Below, in pieces: positions 473 to 62,400 of a DNA stretch of 64,000 bases; positions within the stretch are counted from its first letter, which is position 1, and each line of letters begins with the position of its first letter. Position numbers and translations under genes: made by a program. The DNA comes from Bacillota bacterium (GTDB taxonomy: Bacteria > Bacillota > Limnochordia > Limnochordales > ZCTH02-B6): assembly GCA_017578085.2 (NCBI GenBank), contig PKQR02000001.1, positions 7,105 to 71,104 on the forward strand, in the 5' to 3' direction. The notes below the pieces were generated by a model. The model was not told the origin of the DNA. It made no database searches and saw only the letters and a program-made list of their open reading frames with translations.

Positions 473-3289
473 ATGGACGCGGACAAGAACGTGGACTACC
501 AAAAGACGCTGCAGCTGCCGCGCACCGAGTTCCCCATGCGCGCCCAGCTGAGCCAGCGGGAACCGGAGTTCCTGCGGCGCTGGGAAGAACGGAAGCTGTA
601 CCAGCGCCTCCAGGAGCTGGGGCGGGCCCAGAACCGGCCGGTCTGGATCTTGCATGACGGGCCGCCCTACGCCAACGGGGACATCCATATCGGCACGGCG
701 TTCAACAAGATCCTGAAGGACATCGTCATCCGCTCCCACAGCATGGATGGCTATCACTGCCCTTACGTGCCGGGGTGGGACACCCACGGGCTGCCCATCG
801 AGCACGCCATCATCACCGCCCACGGCATCGACCGGCACGCCATTGACCCGGTGGAGTTCCGGCGCCGGTGCAAGGAGTACGCCCTTCATTACGTCAATGT
901 GCACCGGGAACAGTTCCGCCGCCTGGGCGTCTGGGGTGACTGGGACAATCCTTACCTGACCTTGACGCCCGAATACGAAGCGCGGCAGGTGGAAGTCTTC
1001 GGCGAGATGGCCCGGCGGGGCTACATCTACAAGGGCCAGAAGCCCGTCTACTGGTGTCCCCACTGCGAAACCGCCCTGGCCGAGGCCGAGATCGAATACA
1101 AGGACCACCGCTCGCCGTCGGTCTACTTCACATTCCCCGTCGTGGACGGCAAGGGCCTCTTGCCTGCGGACAGCGCCGTCGCGGTCTGGACGACGACGCC
1201 TTGGACGATCCCGGCCAACATGGCCATCGCCCTGCATCCGGAGTTCGCGTACGTTTTGGCGGAAACCGACCGGGGGCTGTTGCTCATGGCCGAGGGCCTC
1301 ATGGAGCAGGTGGCCCAAGCCGTAGGCCTCTCGGTGCGTGGCCTGCGGGCCCGCTTCCGCGGGCAGGAGTTGGAAGGCGTCGTGACACGGCATCCGCTCT
1401 TTGACCGGGAAAGCCCCATTATCCTGGCCGAACATGTGACGCTGGAACAGGGGACAGGCTGCGTGCACACGGCGCCGGGGCACGGCCTCGAGGACTACGA
1501 GGTGGGCGTGCGCTACGGGTTGCCGGTCTTTGCCCCCGTGGACGCCAGCGGGCGGTTCACCGCTGAAGGCGGGCCGTACGCGGGCCAGAAGGTGTCCGAG
1601 GCCAACGGGCCCATCATCGCGGACCTGGAGCGAAACGGGCGCCTGCTCAAGCGCGCCGACGTGAACCACCAATACCCCCACTGCTGGCGCTGTCGCAACC
1701 CGGTCATCTTCCGGGCCACAGAGCAGTGGTTCGCGTCAGTCGAAGGCTTCCGCGAGGCGGCCTTGGCCGCCATCGGCCGCGTCCAGTGGATCCCGCCCTG
1801 GGGCCAGGAGCGCATCGCCAACATGGTCGCGCAGCGGGCCGACTGGTGCATCTCGCGGCAGCGAGTTTGGGGCGTGCCCATCCCCATCTTTACCTGCAAA
1901 GCTTGCGGCCACCATCTCATCGATGAGGAAACCATCGCCGCCGTGGCGGACCTGTTCCGGCGGGAGGGCTCCGATGCCTGGTTCCAGCGGGCAGCCAGCG
2001 AGATCCTTCCCCCGGGCAAGGCATGCCCGCAATGCGGCGGGACCGACTTCGACAAGGAAAAGGACATCATGGACGTCTGGTTTGACTCGGGTTCGTCCCA
2101 CGCGGCGGTGCTGGACGAGCGGCCCGAGCTGCGCTGGCCGGCGGACATGTATCTTGAGGGCAGCGATCAGCACCGGGGCTGGTTCCAGTCGTCACTGCTG
2201 ACGGCGGTGGCCACGCGGGGCGAAGCGCCGTACCGCGCCGTGCTCACCCACGGTTTCGTCGTGGACGAGGAAGGCCGCAAGATGTCCAAGTCCCTGGGCA
2301 ACGTGGTGGAGCCCCAGGCGGTGGTGGGGAAGTACGGGGCGGACGTGCTGCGGCTGTGGGCGGCCTCCGTTGACTACCGCGGCGACGTGCGCATCTCGGA
2401 GAATATCCTCAACCAGCTGGCGGACGTCTACCGGCGTATCCGCAACACGGCCCGGTTTCTCTTGGGCAACATCGGGGACTTTGATCCGGTCAAGGACGCC
2501 GTGCCCTTTGACGCCATGACGGAGATCGACCGCTGGGCGGTGCTGCGGCTCAGGCGCCTTGCCCGGCGCGCCATCAAGGCGTACCGGGAGTACGAGTACC
2601 ACGTGGTGTTCCACCAGGTGCACCACTTCTGCGCGGTGGACATGGGCGGTTTCTACCTGGATGCGCTCAAGGATCGCCTATATTGCGAAGGGCCCGCGTC
2701 CCACGAGCGGCGGTCGGCGCAGACCGCGCTGTACGAAATCTTGGTGACGCTGACCAAGCTCATCGCGCCGGTCTTGGCCTTCACGGCCGATGAAATTTGG
2801 CAGTACCTGCCCGAACACGCCCGGGAGCAGGAGAGCGTCCACTTGACCACGTGGTCGGAGCCGCCTGCGGAAACGCCCGAGGAGCAGGCCTTTATGGAGC
2901 GCTGGGAGCGGCTCCTGGCGGTGCGGCGCACCGTGACGAAGGCGTTGGAGAACGCCCGCAACGAGAAGCTCATCGGCGCGTCGACCGAAGCCGCTGTGGA
3001 GCTGTATCCCAACGAAGCGACGGCGGCGCTGCTCGGCAGCTTCACCGCCGAGCAGCTGGCGGAGGCGTTCATCGTGTCCGCGGTCCGGGTCCACCCCGCG
3101 GGGACGGCTGTGCCCGCCGGGGCGCTGGACGAGGGCACCGGGGCGGCGGCCGTAGTCGTGCGCGCTCCCGGGGAGAAGTGCGCCCGCTGCTGGCGGTACT
3201 CGGAAACCGTGGGCGCACACGCGCGTCACCCGCAATTGTGTGAGCGCTGCGCAACGGTGGTCGAGCGCGATTACGGGCATGGGAGCTGA
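473..3289 (+). CDS. ileS: Isoleucine--tRNA ligase (class I, type 1)
   Basis: The tracked ORF is 326-3289. I moved the start to ATG 473, behind GGAGGTG (459-465) and after the T-box terminator. Motifs present: PPYANGDIHIGTA (HIGH), GRKMSKSLGN (KMSKS), and Cys-pair zinc motifs CPHC, CWRC, CKAC/CPQC and C-terminal CARC..CERC. Confidence 0.97.
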   Translation: MDADKNVDYQKTLQLPRTEFPMRAQLSQREPEFLRRWEERKLYQRLQELGRAQNRPVWILHDGPPYANGDIHIGTAFNKILKDIVIRSHSMDGYHCPYVPGWDTHGLPIEHAIITAHGIDRHAIDPVEFRRRCKEYALHYVNVHREQFRRLGVWGDWDNPYLTLTPEYEARQVEVFGEMARRGYIYKGQKPVYWCPHCETALAEAEIEYKDHRSPSVYFTFPVVDGKGLLPADSAVAVWTTTPWTIPANMAIALHPEFAYVLAETDRGLLLMAEGLMEQVAQAVGLSVRGLRARFRGQELEGVVTRHPLFDRESPIILAEHVTLEQGTGCVHTAPGHGLEDYEVGVRYGLPVFAPVDASGRFTAEGGPYAGQKVSEANGPIIADLERNGRLLKRADVNHQYPHCWRCRNPVIFRATEQWFASVEGFREAALAAIGRVQWIPPWGQERIANMVAQRADWCISRQRVWGVPIPIFTCKACGHHLIDEETIAAVADLFRREGSDAWFQRAASEILPPGKACPQCGGTDFDKEKDIMDVWFDSGSSHAAVLDERPELRWPADMYLEGSDQHRGWFQSSLLTAVATRGEAPYRAVLTHGFVVDEEGRKMSKSLGNVVEPQAVVGKYGADVLRLWAASVDYRGDVRISENILNQLADVYRRIRNTARFLLGNIGDFDPVKDAVPFDAMTEIDRWAVLRLRRLARRAIKAYREYEYHVVFHQVHHFCAVDMGGFYLDALKDRLYCEGPASHERRSAQTALYEILVTLTKLIAPVLAFTADEIWQYLPEHAREQESVHLTTWSEPPAETPEEQAFMERWERLLAVRRTVTKALENARNEKLIGASTEAAVELYPNEATAALLGSFTAEQLAEAFIVSAVRVHPAGTAVPAGALDEGTGAAAVVVRAPGEKCARCWRYSETVGAHARHPQLCERCATVVERDYGHGS

Positions 3290-5746: not shown

Positions 5747-7809
<2,063 letters not shown>

Positions 7810-43656: not shown

Positions 43657-43734
43657 TGGTCGGGGTGACTGGATTTGAACCAGCGACCTCACGGTCCCGA
43701 ACCGTGCGCTCTGACCAAGCTGAGCTACACCCCG
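43657..43734 (-). tRNA. tRNA-Pro (anticodon CGG), CCA encoded
   Basis: The reverse complement folds as a cloverleaf. Acceptor stem CGGGGUG/CACCCCG. D arm GCUC..GAGC. Anticodon stem CACGG/CCGUG with loop UUCGGGA (CGG, G37). T arm GCUGG-UUCAAAU-CCAGU. Discriminator A followed by CCA. Confidence 0.95.
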
Positions 43735-50711: not shown

Positions 50712-51596
50712 ATGACAGAAGGCATCGTGCTGCGCGGGGTCGGGGGATTCTACCGCGTCCTGCTGGACGACGGGCGGACGGTGGAATGCCGGCCCCGGGG
50801 ACGTTTGCGCAAGGACGGGATCACCTTGCTGGCCGGAGACCGCGTCGCGGTGGAGCTTCTGCCCGACGGCACAGGGACCATCGAAGCCGTCGCACCGCGC
50901 CGCACCGAGCTGCGCCGCCCCGCCGTGGCCAACGTCGACCAGGTCGTGGTGGTGATGGCGCTGGCCGCCCCTCCGCCCAACTTCTTGCTGCTCGATCGCC
51001 TACTGGCAGTGGCCGAGTTCGAAGGCCTCGAACCGGTGTTGTGCTGGACGAAAGCCGACCTGTGCAGCCAGGAGGCCGCCGAGGAGATCACCCGCCCGTA
51101 CCGTGATGCCGGCTACCCGATCATTCTTACCAGCGTCGTGACGGGACAGGGCATCGCCGACTTGCGGGAAGCGCTGCGGAATCACATTTCCACTTTTGCC
51201 GGGCCGTCCGGGACGGGCAAGTCGTCCCTTCTTAACGCCTTGGACCCGTCGCTGAATCGTCAAACCGGCGAGATCAGCCGCAAGCTCGGCCGCGGGCGCC
51301 ATACAACCCGGGTTGTGGAGCTCCTGCCGGTTCCGGGAGGCGGCCTGGTGGCGGATACCCCGGGTTTCAGCCAGCTGGATGTGACGTCCATCCCCAAGGC
51401 CGAGCTGGGCCGCTGCATGCGGGAGTTCCTCCGGTTTCTGGACGAATGCCGCTTTCCCGGCTGCCTGCACAGGGCCGAACCCGGCTGCGCGGTGCGCGCG
51501 GCCGTGGAAGCCGGCGGCATTCACCCGCGCCGGTACCACCATTACCTGGAGCTGCTGCAAGAGATCGAAGAGTGGGAGGCCCGCCGCTACTCATGA
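50712..51596 (+). CDS. rsgA: Ribosome small-subunit biogenesis GTPase RsgA (CpgA)
   Basis: The tracked ORF starts at 50127. I moved the start to ATG 50712, behind AAAAGGGGGG. An OB-fold N-terminus is followed by a circularly permuted GTPase with AGPSGTGKSSL. The zinc motif is CRFPGCLHRAEPGC. Confidence 0.93.
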   Translation: MTEGIVLRGVGGFYRVLLDDGRTVECRPRGRLRKDGITLLAGDRVAVELLPDGTGTIEAVAPRRTELRRPAVANVDQVVVVMALAAPPPNFLLLDRLLAVAEFEGLEPVLCWTKADLCSQEAAEEITRPYRDAGYPIILTSVVTGQGIADLREALRNHISTFAGPSGTGKSSLLNALDPSLNRQTGEISRKLGRGRHTTRVVELLPVPGGGLVADTPGFSQLDVTSIPKAELGRCMREFLRFLDECRFPGCLHRAEPGCAVRAAVEAGGIHPRRYHHYLELLQEIEEWEARRYS

Positions 51597-52255
51597 GTTC
51601 ACAGCCCCTGGTGCTCGCCCCGTCCCTTTTATCCGCCGATTTCGCCCGCCTGGCGGAGGAGATCGCCCGGGTGGAACCCGAGGCCGACTGGCTGCACCTG
51701 GATGTAATGGACGGCCATTTCGTGCCGAACATCACCTTCGGCCCGGACTTGGTGCGGGCGGTGCGCAGCGTGACGCGCTTGCCTCTGGACGTGCACTTGA
51801 TGATCGAGGAGCCGGACCGCCATCTGGAGGCGTTTGCCCGGGCCGGCGCCGACATCTTGACCGTCCACGTGGAGGCATGCCCGCACCTGCAGCGCACGCT
51901 GCAGCACATCCGGGACTTGGGGTGCCGCGCAGGGGTTGCCCTCAACCCGCATACCCCCCTGGACAACATCCGCTACGTCCTTGACGACGTGGATCTCGTG
52001 CTGCTCATGACCGTGAATCCGGGCTTCGGCGGCCAGAAGTTCCTGCCGGCCGTCCTTCCTAAGGTGCGGCGGTTGGCCGCGTGGCTGCGCCTGGGGGGCC
52101 GGCGAATCCATATTGAGGTCGACGGCGGCATCAACACGCAAACAGCGCCGCTGGCCGTAGAGGCCGGCGCCAACGTGCTGGTCGCCGGGTCGGCCGTTTT
52201 CGGCGCCCAGGATCCCCGCGCGGTGCTGCGGGCGCTGCGGGCGGTAGGCGCCTGA
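51593..52255 (+). CDS. rpe: Ribulose-phosphate 3-epimerase
   Basis: It overlaps the rsgA stop by ATGA. Motifs present: APSLLSADF, HLDVMDGHFVPN, MTVNPGFGGQKF and VDGG. Confidence 0.95.
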   Translation: MSSQPLVLAPSLLSADFARLAEEIARVEPEADWLHLDVMDGHFVPNITFGPDLVRAVRSVTRLPLDVHLMIEEPDRHLEAFARAGADILTVHVEACPHLQRTLQHIRDLGCRAGVALNPHTPLDNIRYVLDDVDLVLLMTVNPGFGGQKFLPAVLPKVRRLAAWLRLGGRRIHIEVDGGINTQTAPLAVEAGANVLVAGSAVFGAQDPRAVLRALRAVGA

Positions 52256-52363
52256 ACCGCCCTGGCGGCGGGCTCCTCGTTCCCTGGCGCAAGGCTTCCA
52301 ATTGCCTGTCATGCCCTGATTAAGGCGAGAAGTCTGCGTTTCTGCCCTAGAGTTTAGTGTAGA

Positions 52364-52392
52364 TTGACAGTCAGTAAGTTCTTGTTTATACT
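52364..52392 (+). promoter_or_regulatory. Perfect consensus sigma-A promoter with no annotated product directly downstream
   Basis: TTGACA (52364-52369), an exact 17-nt spacer, then TATACT (52387-52392), in a low-GC pocket. The architecture is identical to the tRNA-Pro promoter. Confidence 0.65.
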
Positions 52393-52398
52393 GGCTTT

Positions 52399-52663
52399 AC
52401 CCGGCCGGGATGGTCCCGGGGGAGCGGCGAGTACGCCGTTATTGGGGGTTGGTTGATCGGGAAAAACGCGCCGGGTGCCAGTGGCATCCTCTCCGTCCAC
52501 AACGCAACAATTCAAAAATCACCCCTGATGGGCATGGTTGGCTGGTGGTTTTCTCGCGGATAGGGACGGTCAGCCGTCGCTCCCCTCCCATGGGACCTGG
52601 CATCCGCCTTCTTCCTTGCGGCGGACCACCGCCAGCCGCCCTGGCAAGGAGAGGAATCGACCC
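52399..52663 (+). ncRNA. Candidate structured RNA (6S-like rod, or a long regulatory 5' leader) of about 210-265 nt
   Basis: This region is non-coding by my assessment, because the first RBS plus start is at 52664. Three blocks totalling 19 bp pair 52408-52426 with 52578-52605. An apical hairpin lies at 52473-52489. An A/U-rich stretch lies at 52506-52521. There is no terminator before the CDS. The fold was done by eye only. Confidence 0.4.
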
Positions 52664-53794
52664 TTGGGAGGGAAACGCGAGACGGCTGTCCCCGAGATGT
52701 CCAAAACGGCTCTCGTCCAGGCAGTGCTTGGGTCGATGCGCCGGGAGGCGCTCCGGCGGCGTCGCCGTCCCGTCCTGGGGGCCGCGATCTGGGGACAGTT
52801 CCACGAATGGGTGCGCGATGAATCGGTAGAGGCCGTGATCATCCACGGCACCAGCGGGGTGCACGTTCTTCAATCCGGCGCGTGGCGGGAAGCACAGAGC
52901 CCGTTTGTGCGGGAACAGCAGGTGCGGGAGCTGCTCCGGCGCTTGACGCTAAATCCGAGGCGCGATCGCCATCCCGTACACGTGCCGCTGCCCGAAGGCT
53001 TTGAACTGTTCTCTTGGCAAACTGTTGACCGCGGCGAGACCGTCCTGTTCTTTCGACGGCTGCGCCCGGTGCCGCCGGCGCCCGCCAAGCTCAATGAGCT
53101 CTGGCGCGGGAACCGGGAGGGGCTGCGGCTGGTGGCCAGCGCGCTCAGCCGGCGGCAACCGGTGCTGGTGTGTGGCCCAGGCCAACACGCCAGGGAACAA
53201 GTGCTGCTCGCGCTCAGCGGCCTGCTGGAACCAGGAACGCGAGCGGTTTGGCTTGTGGATGCAGGGCGCCCGTTGCCTGCGGCGGGTGCCGCGGCGGTGG
53301 TCAGCATCGACTGCCAGCGGCTGCATGCCGACCCGTTTGCGGCCCGGGACGTGCTGCAGCAGCTCCTGGCCTTGTCCCCCGATTGGATCGTCGCTCAGGA
53401 CGCACCATCCCCGCTGTTGGCGGCGGTGGCCGACGGGCTGAGGTCCGGCCGGTGGGGATTTATGGCTGCTGCCGGCTTCCCGCTGCAGCGCAGCGCCCCG
53501 GCGCGCCCGGGGCGGGACGCTTTGGCTCGATCCCAGGGAGTGCCGGAGCCCTTTCGCTGGATCGTAGAGGTCGGCGGTTACCGGAGGCCGGTGATCGAAG
53601 GCGTGTGGCGGGCGCTGCCGGGCGCAGGTCCCGCCCGCACGTGGCGGAGACTCCGGGGGAGCGAGCGGACCGTAGCCCTGCGGCCCATTCCGGTGCGTTC
53701 GGCCCGCAACCAGGCCAGCCGCCTCGTGTTCGGCAACCCCATCGGCAACAGGGCTGTGCCGGCAAGGGAGACCGAGGGGAGCTCTTCCGATTAA
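52664..53794 (+). CDS. CpaF/VirB11/PilT-like secretion-ATPase homologue with degenerate Walker A and Walker B (predicted pseudo-ATPase)
   Basis: The tracked ORF starts at 52538. TTG 52664 lies 9 nt after AAGGAGAGG. The N-terminal domain (VEAVIIHGTSGVHVLQSG) and a core aligning to ..ILISGGTGSGKTTLLNAL.. are recognisable, but the core here reads VLVCGPGQHAREQVLLAL (53162-53215). The Walker B-like string is PDWIVAQD. The opposite-strand ORFs in this interval look like GC artefacts. Confidence 0.6.
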   Translation: MGGKRETAVPEMSKTALVQAVLGSMRREALRRRRRPVLGAAIWGQFHEWVRDESVEAVIIHGTSGVHVLQSGAWREAQSPFVREQQVRELLRRLTLNPRRDRHPVHVPLPEGFELFSWQTVDRGETVLFFRRLRPVPPAPAKLNELWRGNREGLRLVASALSRRQPVLVCGPGQHAREQVLLALSGLLEPGTRAVWLVDAGRPLPAAGAAAVVSIDCQRLHADPFAARDVLQQLLALSPDWIVAQDAPSPLLAAVADGLRSGRWGFMAAAGFPLQRSAPARPGRDALARSQGVPEPFRWIVEVGGYRRPVIEGVWRALPGAGPARTWRRLRGSERTVALRPIPVRSARNQASRLVFGNPIGNRAVPARETEGSSSD

Positions 53795-53856
53795 GCCGCC
53801 GGGAGCGGTGTGTCCCTTCCGTTCGGTGTTGCAGGAAAACAAGTCTTGAAAGCAGT

Positions 53857-53883
53857 GCGGCCCGCGCATTCTACGCGGGCCGC
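53857..53883. terminator. Bidirectional GC hairpin between the convergent ATPase-like gene and rpmB
   Basis: GCGGCCCGCG-(7 nt)-CGCGGGCCGC is a perfect 10-bp stem. There is no clear U-run on either strand. Confidence 0.4.
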
Positions 53884-53943
53884 CATACAATTACAGTGAG
53901 AAAACCAGAAACAAACTGGTGAACAACCGGCTGAGCGGCGCCG

Positions 53944-54135
53944 TTACACCGCTCGCTGCACCTTGCCGCTCTTCAGGCACTTGGTGCAGACGTACGCGCG
54001 CCGGACGGAGCCATTGACCACGATGCGGACCTTCTGCAAGTTAGGCAGGAAAACCCGGCGCGTCTTCCGGTTGGAGTGGCTGACGTTGTTGCCGGTCTGG
54101 GTGCGCTTCTCGCAAACGATGCATGCCCTGGCCAT
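53944..54135 (-). CDS. rpmB: 50S ribosomal protein L28
   Basis: The tracked ORF extends to 54195. The real start is ATG 54135, behind [46 protein letters not shown] is a typical L28 sequence (63 aa). Confidence 0.95.
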
Positions 54136-54166
54136 CGGATTTCCTCCTTCGTGCGAAACCTGATAT

Positions 54167-54195
54167 AGTGTAGCATACGGCAAAAATGCGGGCAA
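54167..54195 (-). promoter_or_regulatory. Candidate sigma-A promoter of rpmB (extended -10)
   Basis: The minus strand reads TTGCCC (54195-54190), a 17-nt spacer ending in TGC, then TACACT (54172-54167). Confidence 0.4.
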
Positions 54196-54257
54196 GCAGG
54201 AAAGCCTGCGCAGGAAACGAATCTTTGTCCGGTGATGTCAAGCAGGGTGGAGTGATC

Positions 54258-54671
54258 ATGGCGCAACAGCAGGATACGGGGCTTGGCAAGATCCAGATCG
54301 CGGACGAGGTGATCGCCACCATCGCGGGTGTTGCGGCCACCGAGAGCTACGGCCTTGTGGGGATGCAGGCGCGCAACGTCCAGGAAGGGCTGTCCGTCCT
54401 GCTGCGCCGTGAGGACCTGGCGCGCGGCGTACAGGTGACGATCGCCGACAACCGGGCCATCATTGACCTATCCGTCGTGGTGCAGTACGGCGTGAACATC
54501 GCTGAAGTGGCCCACAACGTGATGGAACAGGTCAAGTACGCGGTGGAGAGTCAATGCGGCCTTGAGGTCGCACGGGTAAATGTCCACGTGGTGGGCGTCC
54601 GCGTCGATGACAAGGCGGCGCCCGCCCCCGCCGTCGGCCCGCGCCATCGCCGGCAACCCACCCGCCGATAA
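54258..54671 (+). CDS. Asp23/Gls24 family envelope stress protein (YloU-like)
   Basis: ATG 54258 follows GGGTGGAG. Family strings present: GKIQIADEVIATIAGVAATESYGLVGM, ..VVVQYGVNIAEVA.. and ..VNVHVVGV. Confidence 0.9.
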   Translation: MAQQQDTGLGKIQIADEVIATIAGVAATESYGLVGMQARNVQEGLSVLLRREDLARGVQVTIADNRAIIDLSVVVQYGVNIAEVAHNVMEQVKYAVESQCGLEVARVNVHVVGVRVDDKAAPAPAVGPRHRRQPTRR

Positions 54672-54691
54672 GATCAAGGAGGTTTGGCGGG

Positions 54692-56476
54692 TTGGCGCCA
54701 AGGCGACTGACAGCCGGATTGTTGCATGATTTGATCGCGGCCGGAGCAGCCTACTTGGAGCAGCGCAAGGAAACGGTCAATTCCCTCAATGTATTTCCCG
54801 TCCCCGACGGGGACACCGGCACCAACATGGCCCTCACCCTAGCCGCTGCCCGGCGGGAGCTGGGCGACGCGGCCGGGCTGCCGCTGGGCCAGGCGGCGCA
54901 GCGGCTGGCCCGGGGCGCGCTGCTGGGGGCCCGCGGCAACTCCGGCGTAATTTTGTCCCAGTTCCTGCGGGGCTTTGCCCAGGGCCTGGCGGGCCTTGAC
55001 AGCGCAGGTCCGCGGGAGCTGGCCGCAGCCTTCTCCTCGGCTACCGAAACCGCATATCGGGCCGTCATCAAGCCTGTGGAGGGCACCATGCTCACCGTCG
55101 GGCGGGGCGCGTCTGAGGCGGCCGAGCGGGCGGCGCAAGACGGCAAGGATCTGGAAGGGGTCCTGGAGGCGGCCGTCGCGGGAGCCAAGGAGGCGCTAGC
55201 CCGCACCCCGAGCCTGCTGCCGGTCCTGGCACGAGCTGGGGTCGTGGACGCCGGCGGCCAAGGGTTTGTGTTCTTCCTTGAAGGTATCCTGGCGGCGGTG
55301 CGCGGGCAGGTGCCCGTGCTCGCGGCCCCGGCGAATCCCGGGGTTTCCGGAGTCACACCGGCGCCGGCCGCACTGGCCGACGTCCAGGTGCACAGCGCGA
55401 TCACCCACGAGTTTGTCGAGCACCGCTATTGTACCGAATTCCTGATCCGGGGACAGAACCTGGACCTGGATGAGATCCAAAAGGCCCTCGAGCCGCTGGG
55501 CGATAGCCTCCTGGTGGTCGGCGACAGGGAGCTCGTTAAGGTCCATGTTCACACCAACCACCCTGGCCGGGCTCTCGAGATCGGCACGGCGCGCGGAGAG
55601 CTCTTGAACGTGTCCGTCGCGAACATGCAGGAGCAAAACCGCGTAGCCGCTGCTCACAACCAGGCCGCCGCGCACGGCGGGACCGTGGTCCGTGCGCAGC
55701 CGGCTCCGGCTCAGGAGCATGTGCTGGCTCAGGGGCAGCCGGCGGGCCCAGGACAGGACAAGGCAGCCGCCGCACCCGGCCCGTCGGCCCACGGTCAGCC
55801 GACCGCCAACGGCGCGCCGAAAGGCATCGGCGTCGTCGCGGTGGCCCAAGGCGAGGGGTGGCGCCGGCTGCTTGAATCCCTGGGCGTAGACCAGGTGGTT
55901 TCCGGGGGACAGACCATGAACCCCAGCGCCGCGGAGCTGCTTGCTGCCATCGAGGCGGTGGACGCGCCCGACGTCGTGGTGCTGCCCAACAACAGCAACA
56001 TCGTGTTCACAGCCCGCCAAGCGGTGGAGCTGACCGATCGCCGCGTGCATGTGGTGCCGACCCGGACGGTGGCCGCAGGGGTGGCGGCCATGATGGCCTA
56101 CACGCCCGAGGGCGATGCCGAAACGGTCGCGAGGACGATGAGCGAGGCGGCCGAGCGCGTGCGCACCGCGGAGATCACCTACGCCGTGCGGGACAGCGAG
56201 GCGTGGGATATCGCTGTGCGGGCGGGCGACTGCATCGCCCTGGTCGGCGGTGAGGTGCGAGCCGTGGCCGCGGATCCGGAAGCGGCAGCCCTGGCCGCCC
56301 TGCGGGCCATGGTGACGCCCGACGACTCGTTGATCTCCATCTACTACGGGCAAGACGTGGCGGCGGAGGCGGCGGAGGCCCTTGCGGAACAAGTGCGGGC
56401 CGAGTGGCCCGGCTGCGATGTAGAGGTCTACATGGGCGGGCAGCCCGTCTACTATTACATCCTCTCGGTTGAATAG
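54692..56476 (+). CDS. DAK2 domain fusion protein YloV
   Basis: TTG 54692 lies 9 nt after AAGGAGG. NVFPVPDGDTGTNM is the DAK2 signature. The C-terminal domain is DegV-like/YloV. A low-complexity Ala/Gln/Pro linker of about 60 aa separates the two domains. Confidence 0.9.
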   Translation: MAPRRLTAGLLHDLIAAGAAYLEQRKETVNSLNVFPVPDGDTGTNMALTLAAARRELGDAAGLPLGQAAQRLARGALLGARGNSGVILSQFLRGFAQGLAGLDSAGPRELAAAFSSATETAYRAVIKPVEGTMLTVGRGASEAAERAAQDGKDLEGVLEAAVAGAKEALARTPSLLPVLARAGVVDAGGQGFVFFLEGILAAVRGQVPVLAAPANPGVSGVTPAPAALADVQVHSAITHEFVEHRYCTEFLIRGQNLDLDEIQKALEPLGDSLLVVGDRELVKVHVHTNHPGRALEIGTARGELLNVSVANMQEQNRVAAAHNQAAAHGGTVVRAQPAPAQEHVLAQGQPAGPGQDKAAAAPGPSAHGQPTANGAPKGIGVVAVAQGEGWRRLLESLGVDQVVSGGQTMNPSAAELLAAIEAVDAPDVVVLPNNSNIVFTARQAVELTDRRVHVVPTRTVAAGVAAMMAYTPEGDAETVARTMSEAAERVRTAEITYAVRDSEAWDIAVRAGDCIALVGGEVRAVAADPEAAALAALRAMVTPDDSLISIYYGQDVAAEAAEALAEQVRAEWPGCDVEVYMGGQPVYYYILSVE

Positions 56477-61155: not shown

Positions 61156-62400
61156 TCAGCGCGACCGCGTCCAAAAGGCCGTCCACCGGCCGATGGCCGA
61201 CCCGATCCCCGCCACAACCAGCATCAAGAGGCCCAGCTGGGTCGCGGTGGCGGTGGCGTGAAACAGCCGCCCGCCAAAAGACAGCGGCTGCACCGCCCAC
61301 ACCGGGGGCAACACCGGCAGCGCCGCGCCTGGGACCCCTCCGCCCAGCCACGCCCCGGCGGGACCGAGGGCGAACCAGGCGGCAATGGCGGCCAGCACGG
61401 CGTGCAGAAAGCGGGCGGCGATATAGGGCCCGAGGCGAATGTCCGTGCCGCGAAGCATCACCGCCACTTGAGCGTGGACCGAGAGCCCGCTCCAGGCGAC
61501 GATGGCGCTGGCGGCCACGGCTTTGTCCAATAGCGGGGCGGTGGCTTCACTGGCCGTCTTGGCGCCGATGGTGATCTCTACTGCACCCCGTACCAGGGCG
61601 TCGGCGACGGTGGGGTGGACGTTGAAGTGGGCGAGGGCCGCGGCCAGGAGCTGGCTGGCCAGCGGCACGATGCCCGCGATGGTCAGCACCTGGAGCATCA
61701 CCGAGAACATGATGATTGACCCGCCGACAAAGAGCAGCGTGTTCATGGAGTTGCGCACTGCGTCGCCAAACAGCTGCCCGATGGGGCGGCCGTCCCGCTC
61801 GCGGGCATCCCGGAGTGCGGCCAGTGCCCGTACCAAAAGCGGGGCCGCGGCGCGGGGCTCCTCGGTCTGCGGCGCGCGGCGGGCGTGAAACCGCATTAGA
61901 AACCCGACGCCGAACGCCCCAACATAGTGAGCAAGGGCGAGGGTCCCCGCCAGCTCGGGCACGGCGAACATGCCGATGGCGACCGCACCCGCGAGGAAAA
62001 GGGGATCGGCCGTGTTGGCAAAGCTCACGAGCCGTTCGCCCTCTGGGCCCGTGCACAGGTTGGCGCGGCGCAGGTCCGCGGCGACTTTTGCACCCAACGG
62101 GTACCCCGCGGCAAGGCCGATGGCCACGGCAAAGGCACCGGCGCCGGGCAGGCGGAAAAGCGGCCGCATAAGGGGCTCGAGAATGACGCCGATAAAATGG
62201 ATGACGCCGAGCCCCATCATGATCTCGGCCATGACGAAGAAGGGCAGCAGGGCGGGAAAAACAACTTCGAACCACAAACGGAGGCCCGTCAAGGAGGCGG
62301 AGAAGGACGCTTCGGGGAAAAGAAGGATCATGGCGGTGACCAGCGACGCCAAGATGGCCAGGCTGTAGGAGGAGATGGCCGGGCGAGCGGCTTGGGGCAC
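61156..62400 (-). CDS. ylbJ: Sporulation integral membrane protein YlbJ
   Basis: GTG 62400 follows GGGAGGG. The 414-aa polytopic protein has LRLWFEVVFPALLPFF and duplicated nucleoside-recognition (Gate)-like halves. Its location next to coaD, on the opposite strand, matches B. subtilis. Confidence 0.88.
   Translation of the reverse strand: MPQAARPAISSYSLAILASLVTAMILLFPEASFSASLTGLRLWFEVVFPALLPFFVMAEIMMGLGVIHFIGVILEPLMRPLFRLPGAGAFAVAIGLAAGYPLGAKVAADLRRANLCTGPEGERLVSFANTADPLFLAGAVAIGMFAVPELAGTLALAHYVGAFGVGFLMRFHARRAPQTEEPRAAAPLLVRALAALRDARERDGRPIGQLFGDAVRNSMNTLLFVGGSIIMFSVMLQVLTIAGIVPLASQLLAAALAHFNVHPTVADALVRGAVEITIGAKTASEATAPLLDKAVAASAIVAWSGLSVHAQVAVMLRGTDIRLGPYIAARFLHAVLAAIAAWFALGPAGAWLGGGVPGAALPVLPPVWAVQPLSFGGRLFHATATATQLGLLMLVVAGIGSAIGRWTAFWTRSR

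Follow-up and report, generated by a model that had tools for sequence, protein, structure and literature searches.

What is transcribed from a strong housekeeping-type promoter that stands just behind rpe and opens onto some 265 nt of non-coding sequence? The question is raised by a 64-kb stretch of Limnochordales DNA (the window, in whose positions all coordinates are given). Its genes run prkC-rsgA-rpe, then a gap, then an open reading frame (ORF), rpmB on the minus strand, and asp23-fakA-degV-recG. The nearest named relatives are metagenome-assembled genomes labelled 'Limnochordales bacterium' and 'Firmicutes bacterium ZCTH02-B6'. A preliminary description of the gap between rpe and the ORF had seen in it either a discrete structured RNA, perhaps 6S-like, or a riboswitch or protein-binding leader of the ORF. 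Comparison with related loci and lineages (numbered L001-L035) makes it very probable that the gap holds a stand-alone functional RNA gene of ~205-215 nt that is not primarily a leader.

The evidence comes from relatives with and without the ORF. The contigs of eight homologues of the ORF protein, a genome scan and a metagenome scan with an invariant 20-mer together gave nine distinct lineages of the ORF clade. All nine have the order rpe-RNA-ORF-rpmB and retain both promoter and RNA. The 20-mer metagenome scan returned seven true homologues of this same clade and four chance matches in other contexts (L022, L026, L028 and L031), and it placed the RNA in no other genomic context. Because the ORF protein family was too small to supply distant loci, these were found through Rpe homologues 68-74% identical to the Rpe of the window. 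The four distant loci (L032, L033, L034 and L035) keep the prkC-rsgA-rpe...rpmB-asp23-fakA-degV synteny without the ORF, and ~200-360 nt separate rpe from the convergent rpmB. Each of these gaps holds TTGACA-17-TAnnnT followed by a recognisably homologous RNA. A covariance model (R1) built from 12 lineages, with L035 left out, scores L032-L034 at 118-128 bits, these being in the seed alignment, and finds L035, which lies outside the model, at 29.3 bits (E ~9e-6). A second, weak match in the window (61221-61322, minus strand, 13.6 bits, E = 0.08) is almost certainly spurious, given a GC content of 72% there and an alignment with gaps over the full model length.

The RNA thus occupies the rpe|rpmB locus in all 13 lineages, and its core is equally conserved where the ORF is missing. 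As L032-L035 have retained the RNA along with a promoter, it is an independent gene older than the ORF, which favours the discrete RNA species of the preliminary description over its leader or riboswitch. The RNA gene appears to be ancestral at the rpe/rpmB junction of Limnochordia-type Bacillota, and the sequences compared point to an RNA family that had not been catalogued and that, within the range of the searches, is confined to that group. Nucleotide identity of the RNA to the window is 59-93%, about equal to that of the rpe coding sequence. It exceeds the identity of the ORF in eight of eight lineages and that of the spacer between rpe and the promoter in all seven that could be measured. 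In the ORF-clade alignment, the sequence upstream of the promoter is variable and long invariant blocks appear from the predicted start onward, namely CCCGGCCGGG, GGGGAGCGGCG, GGGGG, CCCCUGAUGGGCAUGGUUGGCnGGUGGUU, CCGUCGCUCCCC, GACCACCGCC and the Shine-Dalgarno (SD) sequence of the ORF.

Where does the gene begin and end? The rpe stop lies at 52255, and GC falls to 42% in 52300-52399, the low-GC pocket that had been noticed 3' of rpe. The transcription unit is laid out as follows.

52351-52363 (+): conserved block AGTTTAGTGTAGA directly 5' of the -35, kept across the ORF clade and partly in L033; sequence farther upstream is not alignable
52364-52392 (+): sigma-A-type promoter, with -35 TTGACA at 52364-52369, a 17-nt spacer and -10 TATACT at 52387-52392; 11 of 12 consensus matches
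52399-52607 (+): RNA proper, ~209 nt, delimited by the match to the covariance model (212 bits, E = 5e-52)
52608-52663 (+): tail or inter-cistronic leader, with a pyrimidine tract at 52609-52615, GACCACCGCC at 52624-52633 and the SD AAGGAGAGG at 52646-52654
52664-53794 (+): ORF of 376 aa with a TTG start and a CpaF/TadA/VirB11 fold; the frame from TTG is kept in relatives

The consensus promoter proposed earlier holds up well. It is the sole sigma-70-type match in a scan of 51000-55000, in which shuffled sequences lead one to expect 0.3, and both of its hexamers are kept in 13 of 13 lineages; the spacer and the sequence farther upstream vary. The block AGTTTAGTGTAGA could act as an UP element or as a site for a regulator. 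Transcription would start at the A at 52399, 7 nt past the -10, and the RNA would end with its closing helix at 52607, both positions being predicted from the sequence. The first bases of the RNA (52400-52409, plus strand) form a perfect 10-nt palindrome, CCCGGCCGGG, which reads CCGCCGGCGG in L032 and L033; L034 has a version that tolerates G.U, and L035 has none. The palindrome might belong to the outer closing stem, mediate dimerisation of the RNA or, as DNA, serve as an operator at +2..+11.

The stretch between the promoter and the ORF start had been described as untranslated, and the relatives agree. No conserved ORF was found inside the RNA region, and the SD and TTG start at 52664 are conserved. 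Insertions and deletions of 1, 2 and 3 nt, not all of them multiples of three, occur within conserved RNA blocks; together with the invariance of 'third positions' in the one short stretch that resembles an ORF, they identify the region as non-coding. That stretch, a putative leader peptide MGMVGWW from ATGGGCATGGTTGGCTGGTGG, was rejected: it has no SD, its frame and stop are broken by +1 and +2 indels, and its synonymous positions are invariant. The statement that no intrinsic terminator precedes the ORF was likewise borne out, as the terminator scan found no terminator-like site on the plus strand between the promoter and the ORF. P1, the closing helix described below, was considered as a terminator in combination with a U-tract and discarded, because the U content after it is inconsistent (1-8 of 12 nt).

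The following elements were recognised within the RNA.

52408-52411 with 52602-52605 (+): outer extension GGAU / AUCC, part of the optimal duplex of the window; register varies among lineages, weakly supported
52412-52417 with 52592-52597 (+): P1a, 5' strand GGUCCC and 3' strand GGGACC; three of six pairs changed on both sides, 95.7% of cells paired
52419-52429 with 52575-52585 (+): P1b, 5' strand GGGGAGCGGCG and 3' strand CGUCGCUCCCC; 11 of 11 pairs formed in 12 of 12 lineages (100% of cells)
52444-52448 (+): invariant GGGGG, 5' strand of the large internal loop, in 13 of 13 lineages
52456-52461 with 52524-52529 (+): P5, AUCGGG / CCUGAU, a 6-bp helix with 88.9% of cells paired
52473-52489 (+): P3, apical hairpin GGGUGCC, loop AGU, GGCAUCC, with a G.U to A-U change
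52490-52523 (+): A/C-rich linker, probably single-stranded, variable in length and sequence and nearly free of G
52530-52550 (+): invariant core GGGCAUGGUUGGCUGGUGGUU, 3' strand of the large internal loop, the same in nine lineages at all but one position
52559-52567 (+): conserved GAUAGGGAC, for which local pairing with the P1b 3' strand is possible as an alternative hairpin

The closing helix P1 is the best documented of these elements. P1a is found as GAUCCC/GGGAUC, GAUCCC/GGGGUC, ACCCCG/CGGGGU and AACCCCG/CGGGGUU. In P1b one pair is seen as G.U, A-U and G-C; a second pair goes from G-C to A-U in L034, and two G.U pairs are present in L032. The closing helix of L035 has a wholly different but complementary sequence, GGGACCG/CGGUCCC in P1a and GUUCCGUUCCUU/AAGGAACGGUAC in P1b, and its 5'/3' duplex scores z = -5.7 against shuffles. 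Duplex energies between the 5' and 3' parts range from -42 to -51 kcal/mol in 13 of 13 lineages, and RNAalifold recovers P1 independently on the model-based 13-lineage alignment. All the pairings listed in the preliminary description are present in the sequence, and the closing helix that it drew is supported by covariation and turns out three pairs longer, with 11 bp in P1b and 6 bp in P1a. Each P1b strand also has a local alternative partner. Around GAUAGGGAC, RNAalifold predicts the pairs 211-232, 212-231 and 214-216 with 227-229, which 10-12 of 12 ORF-clade sequences retain; the counterpart of GAUAGGGAC is GAAUAGAAC in L034 and GAUUAGAGC in L035.

Covariation was counted over the 30 pairs of P1a, P1b, P5 and P3 on a 12-lineage alignment. 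These pairs are formed in 91.3% of cases, compared with 45-57% when the partners are slid, and eight pairs show changes on both sides, compared with one to four when slid. In 500 shuffles the observed pairing values are never reached; kinship among the sequences inflates such shuffle statistics, and the slid controls and the case of L035 are the more reliable evidence. Folding of the sequence of this region by itself is no better than shuffles, with z = -0.87 over 265 nt and z = +0.51 over 209 nt, values that are uninformative because the sequence is 63% GC. The RNA of L035, which is lower in GC, folds at z = -4.84 against shuffles. Support for the structure is comparative rather than thermodynamic. 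The strand can be assigned as well: conserved G.U pairs in P1b and P5, which would be C.A on the opposite strand, and the plus-strand promoter both indicate the plus strand. The fold and covariation check that had been proposed for relatives downstream of rpe has therefore yielded a conserved structure, with P1, P5 and P3 supported.

Inside P1 lies a large internal loop with 26 nt on its 5' strand and 45 nt on its 3' strand. From it projects an arm of ~17 bp, formed by P5 and P3, with a terminal loop and an A/C-rich bulge of 27-45 nt. In P5 a G.U pair becomes A-U in L013, and by reading its equivalents are GAUG/CAUC in L035 and UGAUC/GGUCA in L033. The conserved form of P3, the apical hairpin noted at the outset, is GGAUGCC-ARGG-GGCAUCC and extends to L033, L034 and L035; L012, L013 and L032 have other sequence there. 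The stretch at 52506-52521, previously described as A/U-rich and probably unpaired, falls within the linker, whose variable length and sequence are consistent with an unpaired state. Two small hairpins drawn earlier (52426-52437 and 52565-52578) can form in the window and are not kept in relatives. The helix search and RNAalifold revealed no further conserved helices beyond P1, P5 and P3. A candidate helix P4 (CCCU/AGGG in the window, AGGG/CCCU in L033) was rejected, since it is not kept in L032, L034 and L035 and conflicts with P5. The arm tolerates large changes: L009 has an insertion of ~45 nt after P3 (3790-3840), P3 is replaced by a longer unrelated insert in L032 (3835-3890), and in L012 and L013 its place is taken by CUGAU-repeating sequence.

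The most conserved residues of the RNA are its unpaired G-rich tracts. In nine lineages where identity of the neighbouring protein is only 48-86%, the core GGGCAUGGUUGGCUGGUGGUU is near-invariant. The pattern GGG-N(3-6)-GGUYGG is kept in 13 of 13 lineages, and comparison of the lineages yielded no conserved partner for the G-rich strands. As a side observation, the part of the core at 52536-52550 (plus strand), GGUUGGCUGGUGG, has four GG tracts spaced 1-2 nt apart in the manner of a two-tier G-quadruplex, and several GG tracts recur in L034 and L035. Resemblances to the signal recognition particle (SRP) RNA, T-box, CsrA-sponge and G-quadruplex that were seen by eye received no support from model or conservation.

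How might such an RNA act? In the explanation that we consider best, the sigma-A promoter would drive an RNA of ~205-215 nt whose 5' and 3' parts form P1a, P1b and variable outer pairs. P1 would close the large internal loop, with the invariant GGGGG on one strand and GGGCAUGGUUGGCUGGUGGUU on the other, and the P5 and P3 arm with its long A/C-rich bulge would project from that loop. In one subclade a pseudo-ATPase ORF would have been inserted behind the RNA gene and be transcribed by read-through, and the RNA would be cut out of the read-through transcript or coexist as its 5' part. The RNA would be abundant and act in trans, binding protein as a decoy or scaffold, with the helix-framed G-rich loops as its recognition surface, and the leading specific candidate would be a 6S-type sequestration of RNA polymerase holoenzyme. 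The parts of this scheme differ in strength. That the RNA is a trans-acting protein binder is somewhat favoured; that it is a 6S-type polymerase decoy is a tentative guess by analogy, albeit the leading specific one; and the whole, mechanism included, falls somewhat short of an even chance.

A trans-acting RNA could also have a partner other than polymerase, either an abundant protein for which it serves as sponge or scaffold or a set of C/A/U-rich target RNAs. The evidence for a stand-alone, highly conserved and strongly promoted RNA is the same for this alternative, conserved unpaired G-rich tracts are more typical of a surface that recognises a ligand, protein or RNA than of 6S RNA, and the tests of 6S membership by Rfam models, pRNA hallmarks and rarA neighbourhood came out negative. 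However, no candidate partner can be identified from the sequence, there is no conserved neighbouring gene for an RNA-binding protein outside the ORF clade, and counts of GGA and ARN motifs are, by reading, unremarkable. Such a partner is a tentative possibility.

What, then, of the gene behind the RNA? The ORF protein has no Pfam domain and only a weak match to NCBIfam TIGR03819 (TadA-type). Its AlphaFold (AF2) model (pLDDT 74.7) resembles the CpaF/TadA, VirB11 and FlaI traffic ATPases, with 9e24_A as the best Foldseek match in the PDB (E = 1e-14). The protein has a degenerate Walker A motif, VCGPGQHARE, and close to its N-terminus a conserved Arg-rich one, RRRRRP. The model suggests a pseudo-ATPase with the CpaF/VirB11 fold. 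Its family comprises nine clusters in a search of 5.8 billion proteins; a search of 1.84 billion representatives gave four below E = 1e-30 and all else at E = 1e-18 or weaker. In every locus retrieved for the nine clusters the ORF lies directly behind the RNA, and protein searches with the ORF found no ORF-less lineage that encodes the pseudo-ATPase elsewhere. The ORF appears to be a later insertion between the RNA gene and rpmB in the subclade of the window. With neither a terminator nor a second promoter before it, the ORF is most likely expressed by read-through from the RNA promoter and probably co-transcribed with the RNA, as the preliminary description had supposed.

The tail between RNA and ORF carries signs of coupling between the two. 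Within it, GACCACCGCC is invariant amid variable flanks in the ORF-clade alignment and is complementary to the invariant core, with energies of -24.7 to -33.6 kcal/mol; in the window the pairing reaches up to 20 bp and -33.6 kcal/mol. The z-scores of this core-tail pairing are -1.5 to -5.5 in the ORF clade (below -2 in eight of nine lineages) compared with 0 to -1.9 in ORF-less lineages, and the pairing was therefore rejected as a universal feature. The predicted folds have the SD 59-98% paired, in many cases with the pyrimidine tract just past P1, and the partners of the SD differ among lineages. In the window and L010 the SD GGAGAGG has a fully matching complement, CCUCUCC, in the 3' side of the arm (52488-52494, plus strand); L001 and L003 come close to a full match, and the ORF-less relatives lack the element. 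Folds that keep P1 lie within 0-2.4 kcal/mol of the minimum in seven of nine lineages. Enforcing the core-tail helix without a pseudoknot costs 3-17 kcal/mol relative to enforcing P1, again in seven of nine, so that the core-tail helix, if formed, is probably a pseudoknot or transient.

These features would fit a cis-regulatory leader, a riboswitch or protein-binding element that controls the pseudo-ATPase ORF via the tail and SD. To the probable read-through, the core-tail complementarity, the predicted pairing of the SD and the anti-SD in the arm one may add the invariant Arg-rich motif of the ORF protein, which could bind RNA. Yet L032-L035 have the RNA and its promoter with neither the ORF nor any plus-strand gene downstream, so regulation of the ORF can be neither the ancestral nor the general function. 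The RNA matches no riboswitch family, the anti-SD partners change from lineage to lineage, and the core-tail folds carry the energetic cost given above unless pseudoknotted. As an account of the primary function the leader is improbable; the comparison rather suggests a secondary, clade-specific cis coupling that evolved after the ORF was inserted, and in that restricted sense the leader of the preliminary description survives.

Still less probable is that RNA and pseudo-ATPase form a dedicated RNA-protein module in which the RNA serves as cofactor or antitoxin-like partner. The position of the protein gene behind the RNA in all nine clusters with a retrieved locus fits such a module, and the Arg-rich N-terminus and degenerate Walker A suggest binding rather than catalysis. 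The RNA is nonetheless older than the ORF, exists without it and has an equally conserved core in ORF-less lineages, and no repeat or toxin-antitoxin-like organisation is present.

Minus-strand hairpins in the RNA gene could end the convergent rpmB transcript in ORF-less relatives, where antisense overlap is possible. That conservation is due to rpmB itself, with the region serving as its 3' untranslated region, terminator or antisense regulator, is nevertheless highly improbable: the RNA does end 12-40 nt from the rpmB stop in ORF-less lineages, so that transcripts probably overlap, L035 has the reverse complement of P3 followed by GUAC and seven U (2157-2190, minus strand) and the window has a minus-strand terminator-like site at 52534..52520, but the 1.1-kb ORF separates RNA from rpmB in the clade of the window with the RNA still conserved, the conserved promoter and the G.U pairs favour the plus strand, and U runs are not adjacent to stems in most lineages.

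The RNA would represent a new family, of housekeeping strength, in a class of Bacillota that is poorly studied and for the most part uncultured. A promoter, boundaries and a consensus structure have been defined for it, and its covariance model can serve for annotation. The locus also offers an evolutionary snapshot, in which a gene was inserted behind a stand-alone RNA gene and apparently uses the promoter of the RNA, with signs that the RNA core and the new leader became mutually complementary after the insertion. For annotation more generally, where a promoter and a long untranslated stretch precede a gene, relatives that lack the gene should be checked before the stretch is called a leader. 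If the RNA does bind polymerase, it would represent a third architecture of polymerase-sequestering RNAs after 6S and Ms1, and would explain how standard 6S models can miss whole lineages.

How does the RNA compare with known families? The 64-kb window was searched against Rfam 15 at gathering score, and short stretches from the window, L033, L034 and L035 were searched with a cut-off of E <= 10. In none of these searches did a family match the RNA; weak matches to bxd_2, mir-202, L20_leader (minus strand) and HIV-1_SD were chance or generic hairpins. The only gathering-score matches elsewhere in the window are a PyrR site (5788-5920, plus strand, 61.8 bits) and a tRNA (43660-43734, minus strand, 66.6 bits). 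OLE gave no match in these searches. Neither did 6S, 6S-Flavo and Ms1 at E <= 10 in any of the four lineages, nor SRP, RNase P, tmRNA, raiA, T-box and the riboswitch families, and membership in these families as modelled is thus excluded. The covariance search advised in the preliminary description has in this way given no support for 6S membership. Literature searches on Limnochordia together with 6S or non-coding RNA gave nothing relevant.

The likeness to 6S RNA (RF00013) is one of general plan. Both have a strong housekeeping-type promoter, a length of ~200 nt, a long irregular closing helix that joins the two ends of the RNA, and helices on both sides of a large internal loop, and it is from these traits that a 6S-type mechanism is proposed. 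The RNA falls in the size range of 6S RNAs (~180-210 nt) with its ends paired in a long closing stem. In both, the strands of the closing helix have local alternative pairings. Synthesis of product RNA (pRNA) induces a rearrangement of B. subtilis 6S-1, which the alternative partners of P1b resemble, and E. coli ssrS is co-transcribed with the downstream ygfA, as the RNA may be with its ORF; both parallels also favour the mechanism.

Several observations weigh against a 6S-type, trans-acting RNA, beginning with the negative searches for 6S, 6S-Flavo and Ms1. 6S RNA is a largely double-stranded rod with a central bubble of ~15-20 nt per strand, a long internal stem and a terminal loop, whereas the interior here does not appear rod-like, given the short arm, the 45-nt 3' loop strand and the long bulge. 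The loop strands also differ from those of 6S RNA in being G-rich and invariant in sequence, and to our knowledge such invariance is not typical of 6S RNAs. The complementarity between core and tail in the ORF clade suggests at least some role in cis. Templates for 6S pRNA are marked by CC, which gives GG at pRNA positions 4-6, and by an adjacent A (PMC8414754). In the window CCGUUA at 52436-52441 would give pRNA AACGG; by reading, these hallmarks are not conserved, the GG being shifted in L006, L012 and L013 and the strand of L033 having no C. For lactic acid bacteria, and for 6S-1 of B. subtilis, the 6S gene is reported to lie near rarA (PMC8414754), a neighbourhood different from the rpe/rpmB locus. 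Of the traits of 6S RNA, size, promoter and long closing helix are found here; the pRNA hallmarks are not conserved, the rarA neighbourhood is not shared, and the interior, with its large loop and short arm, does not appear to be a rod. The RNA is only partly 6S-like, and '6S-type' denotes a mechanistic hypothesis, put forward with reserve, rather than a classification.

Among other known systems, riboswitches and protein-binding leaders share with the clade of the window the position upstream of an ORF, a tail complementary to the core and an SD predicted to be sequestered. Such elements always lie upstream of their target gene on the same strand, whereas the next gene in L032-L035 is the convergent rpmB; a purely cis-acting element is ruled out because the RNA occurs without a downstream gene in these four lineages. 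The raiA-motif and OLE RNAs are closer in kind, with a conserved multi-helix structure, invariant unpaired nucleotides, their own promoter and an occurrence in part of the Bacillota only. They differ in the lack of an Rfam match, in genomic context and in the much narrower known distribution of the RNA described here. Ms1 of Actinobacteria is a 6S-related RNA that binds the RNA polymerase core (PMC9130861). It belongs to another phylum and has no sequence or model match to the RNA, whose own binding of polymerase is only hypothesised. A specific version of the hypothesis, in which the RNA is a non-canonical functional analogue of 6S with an architecture unrelated to 6S or Ms1, and in which pairing of the core with GACCACCGCC in one subclade couples its free or bound state to translation of the pseudo-ATPase, seems rather unlikely. 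Ms1 is likewise an abundant, lineage-restricted structured RNA that standard 6S models missed and that was found through synteny, and it provides a precedent for a 6S-like RNA of different architecture.

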